From a virus (taxonomy: Duplodnaviria; Heunggongvirae; Uroviricota; Caudoviricetes), in IMG/VR virus record IMGVR_UViG_3300019374_000122, positions 1 through 7,114 of that record: a stretch of DNA of 7,114 nucleotides; one strand, written 5' to 3'. Position 1 is the first letter of the stretch. Each line of letters begins with the position of its first letter. The position numbers and the translations under genes are program-made. Below the pieces are notes generated by a model. The model was not told the origin of the DNA. It saw only the letters and a program-made list of their open reading frames with translations, and ran no database searches. Of the stretch, positions 1 to 7,114 are shown in pieces.

Positions 1-140
1 CCCCACCCCACCACCAATGGCAACAGAAAGCGATTTAGGCCATCCGACATACTCAAGCGCGGATGCAAAGGGCAAAGTCAGAGCGCCACATAGCAAAATC
101 TCGAGCGTTTTTTGCTTCCACCCCCCACCACCGACAATAA
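1..140. repeat. Direct repeat copy 1 (about 96% identical to 322..461, offset 321 bp); holin 3'-region sequence
   Basis: Base-by-base alignment of 1-130 with 322-451 shows 5 mismatches; identity decays over 131-140. The 321-bp offset is a multiple of 3. Confidence 0.9.
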
Positions 141-243
141 CATCATAACCGTGGTTACGTGTCGGTTGTCGCCCGTTATCCGTTCCTTCTGACCATGCAA
201 CCATATCCAGGAAAGCTTTACGCTGGGAATTTAGTACCTGCAT
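1..243 (-). CDS. Endolysin (lambda R-type lytic transglycosylase) 5' portion, fused in-frame after codon ~39 to a diverged copy of the holin 3' region; ORF runs off the window at position 1
   Basis: ATG at 243..241, with AAGGAG at 250-255 six nt upstream and directly after the holin stop. Translation MQVLNSQRKAFLDMVAWSEGTDNGRQPTRNHGYDVIVGG closely matches the N-terminus of phage lambda R as I recall it (MVEINNQRKAFLDMLAWSEGTDNGRQKTRNHGYDVIVGG...). It then continues GGWKQKTLEILLCGALTLPFASALEYVGWPKSLSVAIGGGVG, which is holin sequence. No stop codon before the window edge. Confidence 0.6.
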   Translation of the reverse strand, partial: MQVLNSQRKAFLDMVAWSEGTDNGRQPTRNHGYDVIVGGGGWKQKTLEILLCGALTLPFASALEYVGWPKSLSVAIGGGVG

Positions 244-246
244 AAA

Positions 247-582
247 TTACTCCTTCGAGCTACCAAACTTGTTACCGATTACTCTCATTGCAGCCCCACG
301 AATAGCATCGACACCGATCAGCCCCACCCCACCACCAATGGCAACAGAAAGCGATTTAGGCCATCCGACATACTCAAGCGCGGATGCAAAGGTCAACGTC
401 AGAGCGCCACATAGCAAAATCTCGAGCGTTTTTCGCTTCCAGCCACCACCACCGCCAAAATAGGCGATGCGCAAACCAGCCATAACAATCGACATAATCA
501 CTGCGCCCAGCGGCGTATCTCCACGCCACCAGCTCTGAAACAACTCCAGCCAGTCCGGCCAAGTATTTGGGTTATGAGGCAT
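247..582 (-). CDS. Holin, phage lambda S family (class I, three predicted TM segments)
   Basis: Translation from ATG 582..580 (MPHNPNTWPDWLELFQSWWRGDTPLGAVIMSIVMAGLRIAYFGGGGGWKRK...GVDAIRGAAMRVIGNKFGSSKE) aligns in pattern with lambda S (…AMAYLRGRYNGGAFTKTV…IGTDSIGSLIKRFAAKKAG). It sits immediately upstream of, and is translationally linked to, the endolysin start. The track's longer ORF begins at an in-frame GTG at 678, inside the methyltransferase C-terminus, which I consider unlikely as the start. Confidence 0.8.
   Translation of the reverse strand: MPHNPNTWPDWLELFQSWWRGDTPLGAVIMSIVMAGLRIAYFGGGGGWKRKTLEILLCGALTLTFASALEYVGWPKSLSVAIGGGVGLIGVDAIRGAAMRVIGNKFGSSKE
322..461. repeat. Direct repeat copy 2, lying inside the intact holin gene
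   Basis: Same alignment as copy 1; this copy is embedded in the complete holin ORF. Confidence 0.9.
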
Positions 583-658
583 TTCGTCATCTCTCACCTC
601 GCGATATTTGCGGGTGCTGTGTTGGAAATAAAAAGGCCACGCAACGTGGCCACCAGAA

Positions 659-1710
659 TTATTTCCCCACCAGTTCACTTACCTCTTTCACCGTCTGATT
701 AAATCGCTCTGACTCAAGTTCAACACCTAACGCCCGACGCCCCAGCGCCATTGCCGCTTTTATTGTGGAACCGGATCCCATAAGAAATCAGCAACCAGAT
801 CGCCTTGTCGACTACTGGCACTGATTATTTGCCGGAGCATATCCGCAGGCTTCTCACACGGATGTTTACCCGGGTAGAACTGAACGGGTTTATGCGTCCA
901 GACGTCGGTATAAGGCACGGAAACTGATACGGAGAAATAGCGCCGGAGAGTTTTAAACTCATCCAGCAATTCAGAATATTTGCGATTCAGTGAATCATAA
1001 GATGCCACCAGCTGGTGGTGTGGTTGTTCCAGTTGTTGTTCCTGAAATTTCTCTGCCGCTATACGGGAAAACAGTGCCTGCAACTTCCGGTAGTCAGCCT
1101 CATTCGGCAACTGCCACTGACTGGCACCAAACCAGTGGGAAACCATATTTTTCTTACCTGTGGCTTCGGCAATTTGTTTTGCCGTTATACCCAGTTCGGC
1201 ACGAGCATCCCTGAAATACGATATCAGCGGTGCCATTATGTGCTGTTTGAGTTCCCTTTCTTTTGCCGCATAGCCGTCACTTTTGCCGCGATATGGCCCC
1301 TGGTAATGTTCAGCAAACAGAACGCGCTCTGTGGCAGGAAAATATGCGCGCAGACTTTCTTTATTACACCCATTCCAACGTCCGGACGGCTTCGCCCAGA
1401 TGATATGGTTAAGCACGTTGAAACGTTCACGCATCATGATCTCAATATCAGATGCCAGGCGATGCCCACAGAACAGGTAAAGGCTTCCGGCAGGTTTCAA
1501 CACCCGCCAGAACTGGGCCAGACAGTGGTCCAGCCACTTAAGGTAATCTTCGTCCCCTTTCCACTGATTGTCCCAGCCGTTGGGTTTCACCTTGAAGTAC
1601 GGCGGATCGGTAACAATCAGGTCAATGGAATCATCAGGCAGGGACTGAATAAAATGCAGGCAATCAGCGTTGATTAAATCAACACTGTTTATTTTTACAG
1701 TATTTTTCAT
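659..1710 (-). pseudogene. Beta-class DNA methyltransferase (N6-adenine/N4-cytosine, DPPY motif), disrupted by a 1-nt frameshift just before the C-terminal FxGxG AdoMet-binding motif
   Basis: The ORF 760..1710 carries IVTDPPYF near the N-terminus and ends ...DLVADFLWDPVPQ*. A different frame from ATG 781..779 reads MGSGSTIKAAMALGRRALGVELESERFNQTVKEVSELVGK*, with stop at 661..659, which is the canonical motif I and C-terminus. A single missing base around 782-790 would restore one continuous ORF. Confidence 0.75.
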
Positions 1711-1860
1711 GGATCAGTAAGCGTAACTCTGGTAGGCTCACTCTGCTTTTGCGCTAAAGCAGTGGGCCGTGGTTCGCTTGTGACCAGTAGGCATGAGCGA
1801 ATGGCTGGCAGGTGCTACCAACACCCACCAGCCGCCCATTTTCACAGCAGGAAACCGCCA

Positions 1861-2064
1861 TTACTGGCAGCGTCTGAATTTATTCCCGTACCCGCCGTTA
1901 TCCTTCGCCAGACCCGCCAGAACTAACTGAGTCAGTATTAACTGGCACCGGGCTTCGCTTACTCCGGTAGTTCTCGTCATCATGCGTGGCGTTACCCACT
2001 TGTCAGCAGGTAAGAAATGAAGGACTGCGGCGGCGGTTTCTGTCATATCTTGCTGTTTTAGCAT
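1861..2064 (-). CDS. Small hypothetical protein (67 aa), possibly DNA-binding; function unknown
   Basis: ATG at 2064..2062 is preceded by AAGGGA about 7 nt upstream on the minus strand. Translation: MLKQQDMTETAAAVLHFLPADKWVTPRMMTRTTGVSEARCQLILTQLVLAGLAKDNGGYGNKFRRCQ. The track ORF extends to a GTG at 2148 with no RBS. Confidence 0.4.
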   Translation of the reverse strand: MLKQQDMTETAAAVLHFLPADKWVTPRMMTRTTGVSEARCQLILTQLVLAGLAKDNGGYGNKFRRCQ

Positions 2065-2185
2065 GTTTTTTCCCTTCTGGTTAACATGACATACCAATAA
2101 CTCTTGTCTAAAAAGCCAGCAAGATAAAAAGCCAGTATTCACGACCACCAGCGTGTTTACTGTACTGCACCAGGTTTACAGGTAC

Positions 2186-2207
2186 AAAAAAACCGCTCAG
2201 CGGCGGG
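2186..2207 (-). terminator. Candidate intrinsic terminator for minus-strand transcription (short GC hairpin followed by U7)
   Basis: Minus-strand RNA reads cccgccgcugagcgg followed by uuuuuuu (plus-strand A7 at 2186-2192). The stem is only 4-5 bp, so this is weak. Confidence 0.3.
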
Positions 2208-2287
2208 TTTAAGTTGTGTGGCGAAGTAACCACTCTTAACAGATTACAATGTTTTTTGCGGACCGCGCTAATGATTTCCTCTTTTTT

Positions 2288-2317
2288 TTGTTGTATTTTT
2301 CACACGGTTGCTAAAAT
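2288..2317 (+). promoter_or_regulatory. Candidate sigma70 promoter for the plus-strand island (-35 TTGTTG, 18-nt spacer, -10 TAAAAT), preceded by a T-rich tract
   Basis: TTGTTG at 2288-2293 and TAAAAT at 2312-2317, with a T-rich UP-like tract at 2281-2300. The implied leader before ATG 2333 is very short, so the exact start site is uncertain. Confidence 0.35.
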
Positions 2318-2332
2318 TATTTCGGATCGATA

Positions 2333-3274
2333 ATGAGTACAGAAAATAAGAATAAAACTAGGCGAGTGAGAGTTGGTTTTTTCACTGGTAATGGAAGCAA
2401 AAAAGATGGCACATCTGCTGCAAAACTAGCCTTTGAGCAAATGACCACAGCAGATACTGTAACTTTTCCAATAACTTACACAACAGACACCCCAAATCGA
2501 GGGTTAAAGTTAGTTATTCTTCAAAAAGATACCACACTGCAATGTTACTTTGGTTACGTATCGTGGAGAAGGGAATGCCTACTACCGTTCATCGAGGATG
2601 CTACAGGTAGTGAGAGAACAATTCCTTTAAATGATAAAGATTCTGTAGTTGAAAGAACATATTTTATCTATTACTACGAAACGGATTTATTAGCTATGAC
2701 CCTCAACCATATAGGGCCCAAAGTAAATGATCTGGCATTCATTTTGTATAACAAAACTGATTTAAAAAGCGTCACTTTTGAAGCCATTTGGAAACAAGAG
2801 AGCATGAAGGAACTGCTTGAGGACGGAAATATCCTACGTAGTTTCGATCTTATAGTTGCTGCTCCAAGAAACTTTAACAAAGCTAATTATAAGATTAAAA
2901 ACCCTTTAGCTAATGAAATTATTGACATGGTTGTTGGTATGGGCGGGTCGCATCTAAGATTAAATATGCGAGGTCGGATTCGCCCGAAAAAACAAGGTTT
3001 TAACTATCTAAAAACTTCTGTCACCGATGCTATTAAGGAACTACTTGAACTTTTTCCAAAAGGTTCTGGAGGTCTAAAAATTAAAAAAATTGATGTAACA
3101 GAGCCATCCAATAGAACGCCCAAAAGTCTACTTGACCAAGTATTGGTCAGTACAAAGACAATCATTGTCAAAAGCGGTTATCCATCCGATTCTGATATCA
3201 GAACGGCGATGATATCTGCTAAAATTGATAACGCGAACTATCTTGCACAGTATGAGCTCGCTAGCAGAGACTAA
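2333..3274 (+). CDS. Hypothetical soluble protein (313 aa), first gene of the AT-rich island; candidate sensor component of a phage-exclusion/abortive-infection module
   Basis: Long uninterrupted ORF in an AT-rich segment (about 38% GC in a 100-nt hand count at 2333-2432, against about 48% at 4201-4300 in the flank). No Walker A, DPPY, HNH or other motif that I recognise. Its stop is 22 nt from the RBS-led start of the membrane-protein gene. Confidence 0.8.
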   Translation: MSTENKNKTRRVRVGFFTGNGSKKDGTSAAKLAFEQMTTADTVTFPITYTTDTPNRGLKLVILQKDTTLQCYFGYVSWRRECLLPFIEDATGSERTIPLNDKDSVVERTYFIYYYETDLLAMTLNHIGPKVNDLAFILYNKTDLKSVTFEAIWKQESMKELLEDGNILRSFDLIVAAPRNFNKANYKIKNPLANEIIDMVVGMGGSHLRLNMRGRIRPKKQGFNYLKTSVTDAIKELLELFPKGSGGLKIKKIDVTEPSNRTPKSLLDQVLVSTKTIIVKSGYPSDSDIRTAMISAKIDNANYLAQYELASRD

Positions 3275-3295
3275 TAACCAAGCATGGAGGACACA

Positions 3296-3745
3296 ATGAG
3301 AGAATTAGCCACTTTTCTCTGGAAATGCGTCCTCTGGATTCTGTTGACCTATGCAGCGACAAAACTGTTTAAACCGATGAAGCATGCTGACGTACTCACA
3401 ACAGCGGGGGTGCTCTCGACTATATCAGGCATCCTGTTTGGTTTTGTTCTGGCTGCAATATCTATATTTAGTAGTGCAAACAGCGATAAGGAAGGAGCAA
3501 TTAATGCCCTTAAGCAAAACAACGTGTTACCAACTCTGGTAAATCGATTACTTTCAACAGGGTTAACTCTCATCGTCGCATGTATATTTCCATTGATAGC
3601 GATGTTTCTACCAGATGATGTTATTGTTGCGGGCAAACCTATTGATTTCCTATTCATACTGTTAGGCTTATCCTCCCTTATAATTTCGCTATATACCTTC
3701 GGAAGGTGTTGGTTAGTGTTACGAAAAATCTTCCCCCACTTGTGA
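3296..3745 (+). CDS. Small integral membrane protein (~149 aa, four predicted TM helices); candidate effector of the island
   Basis: GGAGG at 3286-3290 lies 5 nt upstream of ATG 3296; an alternative ATG at 3284 has no RBS. Four hydrophobic stretches: LATFLWKCVLWILLTYAATKLF, VLTTAGVLSTISGILFGFVLAAISIF, LPTLVNRLLSTGLTLIVACIFPLIAMFL, PIDFLFILLGLSSLIISLYTFGRCWLVL. Confidence 0.8.
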   Translation: MRELATFLWKCVLWILLTYAATKLFKPMKHADVLTTAGVLSTISGILFGFVLAAISIFSSANSDKEGAINALKQNNVLPTLVNRLLSTGLTLIVACIFPLIAMFLPDDVIVAGKPIDFLFILLGLSSLIISLYTFGRCWLVLRKIFPHL

Positions 3746-3774
3746 CAGGTTGGCCTCATATGGGGCCAACCTGT
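3745..3774. terminator. Perfect 11-bp inverted repeat (acaggttggcc / ggccaacctgt) with 8-nt loop, between the convergent island and Q; likely bidirectional stem-loop terminator or insulator
   Basis: Left arm 3745-3755, right arm 3764-3774, loop tcatatgg. It overlaps the stop codon of the membrane-protein gene and lies 7 bp from the Q stop. There is no adjacent U-run on either strand. Confidence 0.5.
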
Positions 3775-3780
3775 GCAACC

Positions 3781-4149
3781 CTAAGCGTCCATTTCAAGGT
3801 TAACATCCAACATTGAAAGGCAACCATCAATAAATCCTTCGGCTAGTTGTATTTCTATGCGTACCAATTTTTCATCCTTTCCACGCACCTTTGCAATCTT
3901 ACGCTTGGATATTCTGTATAAATAATGTGCCACAAGCAGCGAGTGCTCATCTGGCTTTTTTTGCTTTAGACGAGCAAGACAACCTTCAATAATTAATGCA
4001 TCACTATCTGAACAAGCCTGACGTGTTTTGCTTGTGTAGGGAAGAAGCCCCTTAAACCCAGCAGCTATAGGCGAATAGTCTACTCCAGAACTATCACTCG
4101 CCGCCCATGCTCCCCAACGCTCCAGAACCATCTGAATATCACGCATCAA
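3781..4149 (-). CDS. Late-gene antitermination protein Q (phage 82/21 QuuD-like family)
   Basis: Translation MMRDIQMVLERWGAWAA... matches the N-terminal signature of QuuD-type Q proteins as I recall it (MRDIQMVLERWGAWAA...). GGAG lies 7 nt upstream of ATG 4149. Position upstream of the lysis genes fits. Confidence 0.85.
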   Translation of the reverse strand: MMRDIQMVLERWGAWAASDSSGVDYSPIAAGFKGLLPYTSKTRQACSDSDALIIEGCLARLKQKKPDEHSLLVAHYLYRISKRKIAKVRGKDEKLVRIEIQLAEGFIDGCLSMLDVNLEMDA

Positions 4150-4163
4150 CTTTCTCCACCAAA

Positions 4164-5159
4164 TCAGGCCAACACACCAATCGCCAGCGCGCGATCGATA
4201 AAACGAAATATCAGCTCCAGTTGGGAGCCATACTTCTCTTCAAATGCCACGGTATCCGCATGCAGCTCGTCGTGATGCTTTCTGCACAAAGGCAACACAA
4301 AGAGGTCATGCGCTTTTGTACCCATTCCACCCTGACCGTGACCTATCAGGTGGTGGGGATCATCAGCAGGCTTTCCACAACATGCACACGGCTGTGTCTT
4401 AACCCAGCGCGTGTACTTTTCATTAACCCAGCGGCGGCGTTTTGGGCGTAACATAAAAGACTCCGGCGACTCCGGATCCACTTTCAGCGCCAGCACCTTT
4501 TTCGCCTTATCCTGGATGATGCTGGTGGCAGGAACCGAAGGCACAAGGTCACTTTCCCGGGTGACAGACGGCACAACAGGCTTCGGTAATCTCAGTGCCT
4601 TACGGGCTGCACTTTCCGGTAAGGCATCTGCCAGATCATTACGAATCAGCCACCAGCACAGTTCCGGCATTGTCACAACGTGACTATCATCAAAACCGAG
4701 ATCCCGACGCACAACAGACAACACCCAGCGGGCACAGTTATCCGTTGCCATTGATTCCAGCCGTTCCGTGAACTGATCGCGAAGCTGGTTATCGCAGTGC
4801 CAGCACAGACGGATTGCGCCCGGCGCGTGTCGCATTGTGGTCATGTTCTCGCTGTGCCAGTCGGAATGAGGCCACTGGCAGCCTTTTTCACGAAGTAACC
4901 AGCTTTCAAGACATTCCACCCCACCAGCACGACGAATCACTGCCTCATTACGGAACACGGCCAGAACGGCAGGATCATCCGCCAGCGGTTGTGATGCCGC
5001 AGGAACGGCACCACTGGCGAAAGATGAATAACGCTCCGGCTCAGGCTCCAGCAGAACACGGCCCTGCATAAACAGGGGCATCAGCTCTGAACCTGGCCTG
5101 AACAATACGATCCCCATACGCGGGGCAATTTCAGGGGTCAGTAGTGCTCTCACGGTCAC
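4164..5159 (-). CDS. DUF968-like prophage protein with C-terminal Cys/His-rich (HNH-like) motif; start codon uncertain
   Basis: 331-aa ORF; C-terminus PCACCGKPADDPHHLIGHGQGGMGTKAHDLFVLPLCRKHHDELH. The track start is a GTG at 5159, one nt after the KilA-N stop, with no clear RBS; internal ATGs are alternative starts. Confidence 0.65.
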   Translation of the reverse strand: MTVRALLTPEIAPRMGIVLFRPGSELMPLFMQGRVLLEPEPERYSSFASGAVPAASQPLADDPAVLAVFRNEAVIRRAGGVECLESWLLREKGCQWPHSDWHSENMTTMRHAPGAIRLCWHCDNQLRDQFTERLESMATDNCARWVLSVVRRDLGFDDSHVVTMPELCWWLIRNDLADALPESAARKALRLPKPVVPSVTRESDLVPSVPATSIIQDKAKKVLALKVDPESPESFMLRPKRRRWVNEKYTRWVKTQPCACCGKPADDPHHLIGHGQGGMGTKAHDLFVLPLCRKHHDELHADTVAFEEKYGSQLELIFRFIDRALAIGVLA

Positions 5160-5160
5160 C

Positions 5161-5970
5161 TCAATGAACGGTATCGAGCAGCTTTAACAGCTCAGTGAAT
5201 CGGGATTCGAAGAAATGCGGCTGCGTCTCGCGCGGATTTGCAGGACTGGTGATGTTCTTGCCGAACATGCAGCCTTTCGCCGTCAGCGACCAGAATTTTT
5301 TGATGTTGTTAATCGCTGTACGGCTGTATCGTTCGCGCTGTTCGACGATCCCCAGCTTCGCCATCTGGTGATATGCCTGATTAGCCGTCAGGCGGATACC
5401 ATACTGCTTCAGCAGTGCACTCAGTGACAGCGTGGGGCGGCTTGAGCCATCAGGCGCGTCAGCAGGAACATCAATGGCATAACGCGGTGCCAGATTCGGT
5501 AAGCCAACAGCCTCCTGGAGTTTCTGACAGGCCCCAAGCACAGATGAGTTAGACAGATTTAACTCCCGGCGCATAAAGTCCAGCAGAATCACGCCAGCCT
5601 GCATCTTGTCAGCAGCCTGTCCGGATAACTTTTCCGGCGCGCTGGTTACCATATCGAAAGTACGGATCACCTTCAGATGGAATGACGGGCTGATCCACAT
5701 TGCATAGGCATACACCAGTTCCTTACAGACATACGTTCCCCGTTCATTTCCCCCATGAATCACACTAACTGGGTCAACACCCAAATTCTGGGTGTTGATT
5801 AATTCATGAACAAGATCAACAGTTTGTTGGCTGGAAAGAAACTTTCCTGGCTCCTTGGTTCTGGCATTTGCACCAGATGCTACTGCTGCGCGATGCAGAT
5901 CGTTCAGGCTGTAACGCTCATAAGCATCACGACGAACTTCAATACCATCAATGACCATCAGATTATTCAT
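5161..5970 (-). CDS. KilA-N domain protein (Roi/antirepressor-like DNA-binding protein)
   Basis: N-terminus MNNLMVIDGIEVRRDAYERYSLNDLHRAAVASG... fits the KilA-N pattern. ATG 5970 is preceded by GAGGGG about 8 nt upstream. Confidence 0.7.
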   Translation of the reverse strand: MNNLMVIDGIEVRRDAYERYSLNDLHRAAVASGANARTKEPGKFLSSQQTVDLVHELINTQNLGVDPVSVIHGGNERGTYVCKELVYAYAMWISPSFHLKVIRTFDMVTSAPEKLSGQAADKMQAGVILLDFMRRELNLSNSSVLGACQKLQEAVGLPNLAPRYAIDVPADAPDGSSRPTLSLSALLKQYGIRLTANQAYHQMAKLGIVEQRERYSRTAINNIKKFWSLTAKGCMFGKNITSPANPRETQPHFFESRFTELLKLLDTVH

Positions 5971-5989
5971 ACTTCGTTTCCCCTCTTAA

Positions 5990-6379
5990 TCAGGCAGCTG
6001 CACCCGCCGTTTTCTCGTACTTACTGATAGTGATCTCGACCTTCCCTTCCGGGATAACCGGTCCCCACTCCACCAGCATTCTTTTCACCTGACTGTCGTC
6101 TTCCCACACCCCCGCGTGGGTCAGGGCGTCAAACAGCGCCTTGTTATAGTTGTCCAGATCGCGGATCCTGTTATCCGGAGGAAACAACACGATCTCCACT
6201 GAAGCAGGTGCCGACGTTGGTTTCGGCAGACGACGTAACTGCTCAACTATTGCTGCGCACGCCGCGCTCTGGAATTTTCGCCCCGCCGCGCTTATCAGGC
6301 TCTTACCAGCAAACGCCCCTTTGTTGGGGTGTCGCCAGTACGTGTTCACGCTGGGCGGAAAAGGCAGGATCAGCTTCAT
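5990..6379 (-). CDS. rusA: Holliday junction resolvase RusA
   Basis: MKLILPFPPSVNTYWRH...RIRDLDNYNKALFDALTHAGVWEDDSQV matches the E. coli RusA pattern (PWPPSxNxYYRH...[28 protein letters not shown]), including the catalytic Asp cluster. Its start overlaps the upstream stop as ATGA. Confidence 0.9.
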   Translation of the reverse strand: MKLILPFPPSVNTYWRHPNKGAFAGKSLISAAGRKFQSAACAAIVEQLRRLPKPTSAPASVEIVLFPPDNRIRDLDNYNKALFDALTHAGVWEDDSQVKRMLVEWGPVIPEGKVEITISKYEKTAGAAA

Positions 6380-6702
6380 ACTTTCAGGCCCCTCTCATGT
6401 AACCAGTGGGTTGCACGCAGCCTTGCGTTTTCCTCACCGGCAAGCAGTGAGCGGATAATCCCGACCGCCTCGCTGTCGTCGTCCTTCACCGCGGTATGAA
6501 GCGTGATGCCCCGGGCCACGCCACGCTTTATCGTGATGACGCCTTTTTTCTCCAGTGCGCGAAGATGCTCCACCGCTGCATTCACTGAACGGTATCCCAG
6601 CATGGTTGCCACCTCCTGATTGGTTGGCGGGAAGCCACGTTCTTTCTGATAAGAAATCAGCATATCCAGCACCTGCTGCTGGCATTGAGTTAACGTCGTC
6701 AT
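6376..6702 (-). CDS. LexA N-terminal DNA-binding-domain homolog lacking the S24 peptidase domain (108 aa)
   Basis: From ATG 6702..6700: MTTLTQCQQQVLDMLISYQKERGFPPTNQEVATMLGYRSVNAAVEHLRALEKKGVITIKRGVARGITL aligns with E. coli LexA residues ~4-68 ([65 protein letters not shown]). No Ser/Lys protease domain follows. The start overlaps the upstream stop as TAATG. Confidence 0.8.
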   Translation of the reverse strand: MTTLTQCQQQVLDMLISYQKERGFPPTNQEVATMLGYRSVNAAVEHLRALEKKGVITIKRGVARGITLHTAVKDDDSEAVGIIRSLLAGEENARLRATHWLHERGLKV

Positions 6703-7052
6703 TAAGCCCCCACGTAATTCCCTGACAGATACCACTCATCACCCGATGCAGCGCGCTTGCTGCTTTTCCGTAAGCACCGCTCACGACGCGCAAGAAAATT
6801 GTTTCGCTCTTGCTGGGAGTGGCTTTCACGGAATGCCGCCATCCACACCGTTGCAGCACGACGGTATAAGCCCCTGGACTCCAGTTCTTCCGCCTGGCGG
6901 GTCAGGCACAAAATCTCCCGCGGGTCGTTAGTGCCGACATAGAAATTGCGCACAGGTCTGGTTTCACGAACTGGTTGCGGTTCCGCCTCCTGCGCTCTCT
7001 CAGTCAGGCGCGGGAAATGTCTGCGTGTATCCCCTTCACAACGGTGAGCCAC
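6702..7052 (-). CDS. PerC-family-like regulator domain; true start uncertain because the frame stays open to the window edge
   Basis: AEELESRGLYRRAATVWMAAF...ERNNFLARRERCL resembles the PerC/Pch pattern (AExLExxGxWRRAAxxW...RRxxCL). The track start is a GTG at 7052, and the same frame has no stop between 7053 and 7114. Confidence 0.55.
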   Translation of the reverse strand: MAHRCEGDTRRHFPRLTERAQEAEPQPVRETRPVRNFYVGTNDPREILCLTRQAEELESRGLYRRAATVWMAAFRESHSQQERNNFLARRERCLRKSSKRAASGDEWYLSGNYVGA

Positions 7053-7114
7053 ACGACCACTCTGACGTAACTTGCTTGCTGACTGCAGAACGCGCTGCCG
7101 TGAGTAACCTGCAA

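Follow-up and report, generated by a model that had tools for sequence, protein, structure and literature searches.

A DUF6731 gene pair in an Escherichia coli lambdoid prophage as a probable distant relative of the lambda RexAB module

Introduction

The mechanism of the lambda RexAB system is still debated, after decades. The PADLOC models are understood to include RexAB, as well as Kiwa. Lambda RexA has an RdgC-like fold (PDB 8TWQ) and no enzymatic activity; it is a dimer and binds DNA without sequence specificity. Sucellos (SclA/SclB) is RexAB-like by predicted structure, and is unmatched by the Pfam models of RexA and RexB (Darracq et al., bioRxiv 10.1101/2024.07.02.601686). It consists of two genes, both required, of which sclB encodes a predicted membrane pore, and has a promoter of its own. 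Sucellos works by abortive infection, in which the infected cells die; its BLASTP homologues are mostly found in prophages, 'often in Salmonella' (bioRxiv 10.1101/2024.07.02.601686).

Here we describe a gene pair carried by a viral DNA stretch of 7,114 nucleotides (IMG/VR record IMGVR_UViG_3300019374_000122, positions 1 to 7,114), called the window below. A sequence-only reading of the window had singled out the first gene of the pair, which encodes a 313-aa protein, as an orphan devoid of recognisable catalytic or nucleotide-binding motifs, and had considered a remote relationship with RexA-like DNA-binding proteins as possible. We followed up this reading by homology and profile searches, structure prediction and comparison of the loci in which relatives of the pair are found.

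Results

Gene content of the window

The window belongs to an E. coli lambdoid prophage, and its genes lie mostly on the minus strand. These include a holin gene (247-678, minus strand), an N6/N4 DNA methyltransferase gene (760-1710, minus strand), a 95-aa ORF (1861-2148, minus strand; phrog_331, E 2e-31), the gene of a Q antiterminator (3781-4149, minus strand; PF06530, E 7.7e-52) and DUF968, KilA-N, RusA and LexA-like genes, also on the minus strand. Two plus-strand ORFs, encoding the 313-aa protein and then a membrane protein, sit between the 95-aa ORF and Q, in a region with a GC content of 36-40% compared with 50-56% in the flanks, which defines a low-GC island. Prophages in 72 of 5,426 complete E. 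coli genomes carry the segment 2200-3800 with 100% identity; the one in strain 1283 has tRNA-Thr and proA next to its integration site. No RNA element was detected by an Rfam scan of the window, and an RNA-element reading was therefore dropped.

Compared with a ~99% identical prophage in NZ_CP023371, the methyltransferase gene (658-1710, minus strand) carries a frameshift, due to a 1-nt deletion at about 781/782 (ATAAAG to ATAAG). The 350-aa CDS is thereby broken into a 316-aa ORF (760-1710) and a 40-aa ORF (659-781), and the FMGSGST AdoMet-binding motif is on the latter; the frameshifted gene is either a pseudogene or the product of a sequencing error. [quoted passage not shown]

Insertion site and boundaries of the gene pair

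The pair sits between Q and a putative late promoter and is opposite in direction to the phage's own genes. Its left boundary, delimited by sequence inspection and a terminator scan (2185-2277, minus strand), comprises a late-promoter-like element (-35 TTAGCG at 2271-2266, 17-nt spacer, -10 TGTAAT at 2248-2243), a short leader and, about 50 nt downstream of the promoter-like element, a terminator (stem 2204-2192 followed by a T run). The 2185-2277 element, which contains a conserved GCGGACCGCG / ACCACTCTTAACA block, is conserved in the copies from E. coli, Pectobacterium, Yersinia and phage cdtI, and is also found in phages phiP27, cdtI and mEp460; it is a putative Q-dependent late promoter. 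The arrangement resembles lambda PR'/qut/tR', and the folding of the short leader is unremarkable (z -0.6). The first gene past the putative late terminator is the 95-aa ORF (1861-2148, minus strand), which shows weak winged-helix matches (MarR/TrmB, E about 0.1-0.3). A small ORF is also found at this position in Yersinia and cdtI prophages, and an Endonuclease_NS gene is found instead in Pectobacterium prophages.

An AT-rich region (2278-2332, plus strand) precedes the 313-aa ORF and was read from the sequence as the putative promoter region of the pair. A consensus scan of 2278-2332 detected no canonical sigma-70 site; TGCTAAAAT, at 2309-2317, is a candidate extended -10 that may perhaps serve the two genes. 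In the diverged copies, upstream regions are not conserved beyond the late-promoter block.

Q forms the right boundary of the island and is convergent with the pair. A strong hairpin with a 17-bp near-perfect stem (3740-3778) lies between the membrane gene and Q, with a folding energy of -27.1 kcal/mol (z -4.9) on the plus strand and -22.1 kcal/mol on the minus strand. It overlaps the stop codon of the membrane gene, stops 2 nt short of that of Q, and has no U tract on either strand. This hairpin might act as a buffer between the convergent transcription of Q and of the insert.

An empty site is present in NZ_AP019856, where the late region comes immediately after a homologous Q gene, without the insert. 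The related prophage with this empty site keeps the same Q / DUF968 / KilA-N / RusA module. In NZ_AP019856.1 (1-2329) four tRNA genes (Ile, Arg, Thr, Gly) follow Q, and an 'enterotoxin A family protein' gene is located past the holin genes; the region after Q therefore carries variable cargo.

The 313-aa protein belongs to a widespread family

The 313-aa protein is encoded by an ATG-to-TAA ORF at 2333-3274 on the plus strand, in agreement with the position and length first given for it, and RefSeq annotates the same 313-aa CDS in an identical prophage. The product is cytoplasmic, with a pI of 9.3. The two segments to which the sequence-only reading had drawn attention are located at residues 6-17 (the basic N-terminal segment KNKTRRVRVGFF) and 110-118 (the Tyr-rich YFIYYYETD). 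The same reading had found no catalytic or nucleotide-binding motif by eye, a conclusion with which regular-expression scans and Pfam agree for this protein: Walker A/B, HNH, PD-(D/E)xK, DPPY, HEPN, HD and CxxC signatures were all absent from the scans. As neither such motifs nor enzyme families were found, an enzymatic reading was rejected. The 313-aa protein itself has no match in Pfam, PADLOC or PDB sequences, and searches of Pfam, NCBIfam, PADLOC and PDB with a 30-sequence profile as well as with the single protein returned nothing usable.

The description of this protein as an orphan, by contrast, did not survive homology searches. PHROG 7651 (phrog_7651), a family without assigned function, covers it from end to end (E 5e-146). 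A word-indexed search retrieved 46 homologue clusters (clustered at 90% identity) that are 43-100% identical to it, in hosts that include Escherichia, Citrobacter, Salmonella, Serratia and Yersinia, as well as Atlantibacter, Rahnella, Xenorhabdus, Cronobacter and Pectobacterium, and an exhaustive profile search retrieved 171 clusters (clustered at 50% identity, E<=1e-3). About 55 positions are invariant among close relatives. Together with full-length conservation down to about 20% identity, these invariant positions indicate that the ORF is genuinely protein-coding; the readings as an orphan and as a non-coding ORF were rejected because full-length conservation extends that far.

Pfam PF20505 (DUF6731) is matched by 20 of 30 close relatives (44-62% identity, best E 1e-11) and by 63 of 71 broader relatives from the profile search (best E 8e-20), and a 70%-identical homologue is named 'DUF6731 family protein' by NCBI. 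The 313-aa protein itself does not match PF20505 at E<=10. Since its relatives match PF20505 though it does not, transitive homology makes it a divergent DUF6731 branch. No paper mentioning DUF6731 or PF20505 was found in a literature search. Escherichia phages vB_EcoS-733R5 (ON470608.1) and vB_EcoS-716R3 (ON470622.1) carry a DUF6731 homologue (45% identity) labelled 'portal (connector) protein', a label that is almost certainly wrong.

The DUF6731 gene is followed by a gene for a RexB-like membrane protein

The second gene of the pair (3296-3745, plus strand; phrog_8552, E 1.7e-44) encodes a 149-aa RexB-like membrane partner with four predicted helices. Its ORF is open from an ATG at 3284, and the ATG at 3296, which comes after GGAGG, is the RefSeq start. 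The hydropathy peaks of the partner (residues about 4-22, 39-57, 85-103 and 118-136) and those of RexB (144 aa; 8-26, 48-66, 84-102 and 116-134) show that the two proteins are alike in size and in helix spacing.

A homologous membrane gene, encoding about 144-160 aa, lies directly after the DUF6731 gene, often overlapping it, in 16 of 16 loci examined. Besides the window, these comprise seven loci from enterobacteria, phage cdtI, a PM2-like prophage of Vibrio and six distant loci (Halomonas, Vreelandella, Neptuniibacter, Amphritea, Magnetococcus and an Acidiferrobacterales genome); they span 20% to 100% identity to the 313-aa protein, and their hosts include Escherichia, Pectobacterium, Yersinia and Vibrio.

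Profiles of lambda-type RexA (24 sequences) and RexB (15 sequences) were derived from reference alignments built by database search. Aligned by hhalign with the RexB family, a 12-sequence partner profile gave a modest probability of 43% (P 2.5e-4) across helices one and two and the loop after them. The score was 30.4, which none of 40 shuffled decoys reached (maximum 24.1), and an H-x-D-x-L motif before the second helix is common to the two profiles. The partner encoded in the window has no match to Pfam RexB (PF15968), and one distant partner has a sub-threshold match (E 0.069). A single-sequence structure model of the partner was poor (pLDDT 59). The partner appears to be a distant analogue or homologue of RexB.

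Predicted fold of the 313-aa protein

An AlphaFold2 model of the 313-aa protein, computed from a 30-sequence alignment, was of moderate confidence (pLDDT 73, pTM 0.61). It predicts, in this order, an N-terminal beta-rich domain (residues 7-151), an inserted alpha/beta domain with four strands (155-280) and a C-terminal helix (286-307). This predicted order of elements agrees with that of RexA, in which a globular domain is split by an inserted alpha/beta dimerisation domain. Both segments quoted above, KNKTRRVRVGFF and YFIYYYETD, are beta-strands in the model and align with the RexA strands KNGFY and SFLFVEGD.

The neighbours of the RexA crystal structure reported by Adams et al. are RdgC, Iml3, Chl4, a C. 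glutamicum epimerase and Cas2 (PMC11077077). A Foldseek search with our model placed RdgC at the top (E 1.2e-3), followed by Chl4 and CENP-N. RexA was absent from the top 50 of this search, which counts against a relationship with RexA. Against viral predicted structures (BFVD), Foldseek matched the model to uncharacterised phage proteins comparable to it in length and to some that are RdgC-like, and lambda RexA was not named among the top 50 matches.

Family-to-family comparison with RexA and RdgC

Single lambda RexA and RexB sequences gave no informative hhalign comparison (probabilities 0.5% and 3.8%, respectively), and a family-to-family comparison was needed. The DUF6731 profile aligned with the RexA profile over 221 collinear columns, residues 13-276 of the 313-aa protein facing RexA residues 2-237, with a probability of 51%, below the usual confidence threshold, and a P-value of 1.6e-4. 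The score was 37.2, compared with at most 23.6 for the RexA decoys (one reversed and 30 block-shuffled), and the distant DUF6731 subgroup taken alone gave a P-value of 7.6e-4. The same DUF6731 profile compared by hhalign with E. coli RdgC gave a P-value of 0.44, and Pfam RdgC (PF04381) was not matched; the resemblance to RdgC was found at the fold level only.

Two conserved motifs coincide in DUF6731 and RexA, GPxxxDLxx[FY]L and a D-[IL]-[IL] near the C-terminus. The corresponding elements in the 313-aa protein and in lambda RexA are, respectively, RVGFF and KNGFY in the N-terminal strand, YFIYYYETDLLAMTLNHIGPKVNDLAFIL and SFLFVEGDTIGFARTVFGPTTSDLTDFL in the central motif, and D/S-L-L-D and D-I-L-T-E in the C-terminal motif. 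The DNA-binding residues R219 and K221 of RexA are not conserved in position: they are aligned with P258 and N260, and the nearest basic residues, R261 and K264, are one to three positions off. Conserved basic residues of the 313-aa protein include K59, R80, R108, K130, R179, R213, K252 and K264.

Pfam RexA (PF15969) was matched neither by the 313-aa protein at E<=10 nor by any of 71 family members at E<=0.01, in a search where lambda RexA itself, used as a positive control, scored 1e-97. The remote relationship with RexA suggested earlier is partly supported: the profile P-value, the failure of the decoys to reach the real score and the order of the fold speak for it, and the absence of a Pfam RexA match and the modest alignment probability of 51% speak against it.

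Locations of the pair in other elements

Every enterobacterial copy, down to 44% identity, is flanked by a Q gene of the PF06530 type on one side and by the conserved late-promoter block on the other. More distant members lie elsewhere. In one locus the pair directly follows, on the same strand, a repressor gene with HTH and S24-peptidase domains (cI-like), which is the lambda cI-rexA-rexB order; in another, the same-strand upstream gene encodes an HTH domain only. In two loci the pair is located among Mu-like head genes.

In Vibrio phage 10N.286.54.F4_PE001 (PQ189356.1), a 14.6-kb PM2-like (Vinavirales) temperate element, the pair (1389-2896) lies beside the integrase gene. Its DUF6731 homologue is 34% identical and carries, close to the N-terminus, an acidic insert of about 40 residues; the partner is a four-helix protein. 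The presence of the pair in this element indicates that it moves between tailed and non-tailed phage lineages. In conclusion, because of its varied locations, the existence of an empty site and its low GC content, the gene pair behaves as mobile accessory cargo and not as a core phage function.

Discussion

We propose that the 313-aa protein is probably a distant structural and evolutionary relative of RexA, in an accessory module ('moron') of the RexAB type that combines a sensor and a membrane effector. By analogy with the systems described so far, the function of this module would most likely be prophage-carried abortive infection or exclusion. Modelled on lambda RexAB, P. putida RexABpp and V. 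cholerae Sucellos, the process could run as follows. The lysogen would express both the 313-aa protein and its membrane partner; upon infection by another phage, the 313-aa protein would sense phage DNA or a DNA-protein intermediate and would then activate the partner. The latter would form a pore or channel, the membrane potential would collapse, and the infected cell would stop growing or die before the phage cycle is completed. DNA binding, dimerisation, activation of the partner and an anti-phage effect are properties that these analogues lead us to expect of the module.

Other explanations of the pair were considered. The 313-aa protein could be an RdgC-like DNA-binding modulator of recombination or replication working for the prophage, for example by restraining RecA, next to a functionally unrelated membrane protein. 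We regard this explanation as unlikely. RdgC (PDB 2OWL), a nucleoid-associated recombination protein of E. coli and the first Foldseek match of the model, is encoded by a stand-alone chromosomal gene without a membrane partner and has no profile similarity to the 313-aa protein. The module could also mainly serve the lysis-lysogeny or late-gene decision of the prophage itself, as in the second role of RexA, which would be compatible with defence. Lambda RexA is described as binding DNA and modulating the CI/Cro switch independently of RexB (PMC11077077). Its second role is to bias the switch toward lytic growth. The position beside Q and the late-promoter block of every enterobacterial copy, down to 44% identity, fits such a function. 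It is nevertheless a rather improbable main function, as prophages with the same Q / DUF968 / KilA-N / RusA module exist without the insert, other members are found among Mu-like head genes, beside a PM2-like integrase gene or beside a cI-like gene, and the low GC content is that of accessory cargo.

A membrane-level superinfection exclusion, in which the membrane protein would be the effector that blocks DNA entry and the 313-aa protein an accessory, with no abortive infection, would account for the presence of a small protein of the inner membrane in a prophage moron, since small membrane proteins are common among Sie-type systems. Neither protein resembles known Sie, Imm or Cor families in Pfam, PHROGs or PADLOC, the predicted RexA-like fold of the 313-aa protein suggests intracellular DNA sensing, and the analogues studied experimentally work through growth arrest or cell death, so that this mode of action appears very unlikely. 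A broader proposal would keep the RexAB-type module and extend it: DUF6731 and its partner would form a large unnamed third Rex-like branch, spread over lambdoid, Mu-like and PM2-like prophages of Gamma- and other Proteobacteria, which would also act as a RexA-style DNA-binding modulator of the prophage's own Q-dependent late switch. Its enterobacterial branch would have long been fixed between Q and the late promoter, antisense to early-right read-through; lytic transcription would run into the module and silence it, and the module would influence commitment to lysis in addition to defending the lysogen. Taken as a whole, this proposal is speculative and we give it little credence.

If the RexAB-type reading of the pair holds, DUF6731 / phrog_7651 would gain a probable role, as RexA-class sensors that bind DNA and have no enzymatic activity. 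On that reading, Rex-type modules escape the PADLOC models of 2023 in at least 72 of the 5,426 complete E. coli genomes, counting the window allele alone; other alleles of the pair are present in phage cdtI and in many Enterobacterales. A divergent family that keeps only the fold and the GPxxxDL, D-[IL]-[IL] and HxDxL motifs, the last before the second membrane helix, points to the essential features of Rex proteins, and the DUF6731 pair constitutes independent material for structural, genetic and comparative work on Rex.

Comparison with known systems

As in lambda, the first gene of the window pair has an adjacent downstream gene for a four-helix membrane protein of the 140-150-aa class. Identity between lambda RexA (PF15969) and the 313-aa protein is only about 12-15%; the latter begins with a basic extension of 11 residues and exceeds RexA in length by about 34 residues. 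Neither protein of the pair matches the Pfam models of RexA and RexB or any PADLOC model. The genomic context also differs, since the lambda rex genes are downstream of cI, in the immunity region, whereas the window pair is between Q and a putative late promoter. Kiwa, composed of the membrane protein KwaA and of KwaB (DUF4868), was considered and rejected, as there was no PADLOC or DUF4868 match and the gene order is reversed.

Sucellos, whose genes are likely to be VCA0367-0368, is a cassette of the V. cholerae superintegron, whereas the window pair is in a lambdoid prophage (bioRxiv 10.1101/2024.07.02.601686). Like the homologues of Sucellos, the DUF6731 family has Salmonella members, and it also has Vibrio members; in this comparison, made by description only, the window pair possibly belongs to the Sucellos family or to a sister clade of it. 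A tblastn search of plasmids returned no Vibrio record.

RexABpp (PP_5643 / PP_5644; PMC12894663), from P. putida prophage P1 and likewise compared by description, is near the cI-like repressor gene of its prophage, unlike the window pair. Primer-derived searches of viral and metagenome contig collections retrieved no PP_5643 locus, and no representative shares the PP_5643 termini. The Rex-like pairs of actinobacteriophages (Sbash gp30/31, CarolAnn gp44/43, Butters and Toast), likened to the window pair by description, consist of cytoplasmic and membrane proteins by which prophages keep out other phages, in hosts of another phylum; the RexA homologues among them form dimers and show non-specific DNA binding. 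The DUF6731 pair would be of a kind already known, as a very divergent member and not a new category of system, and its description is an incremental advance.
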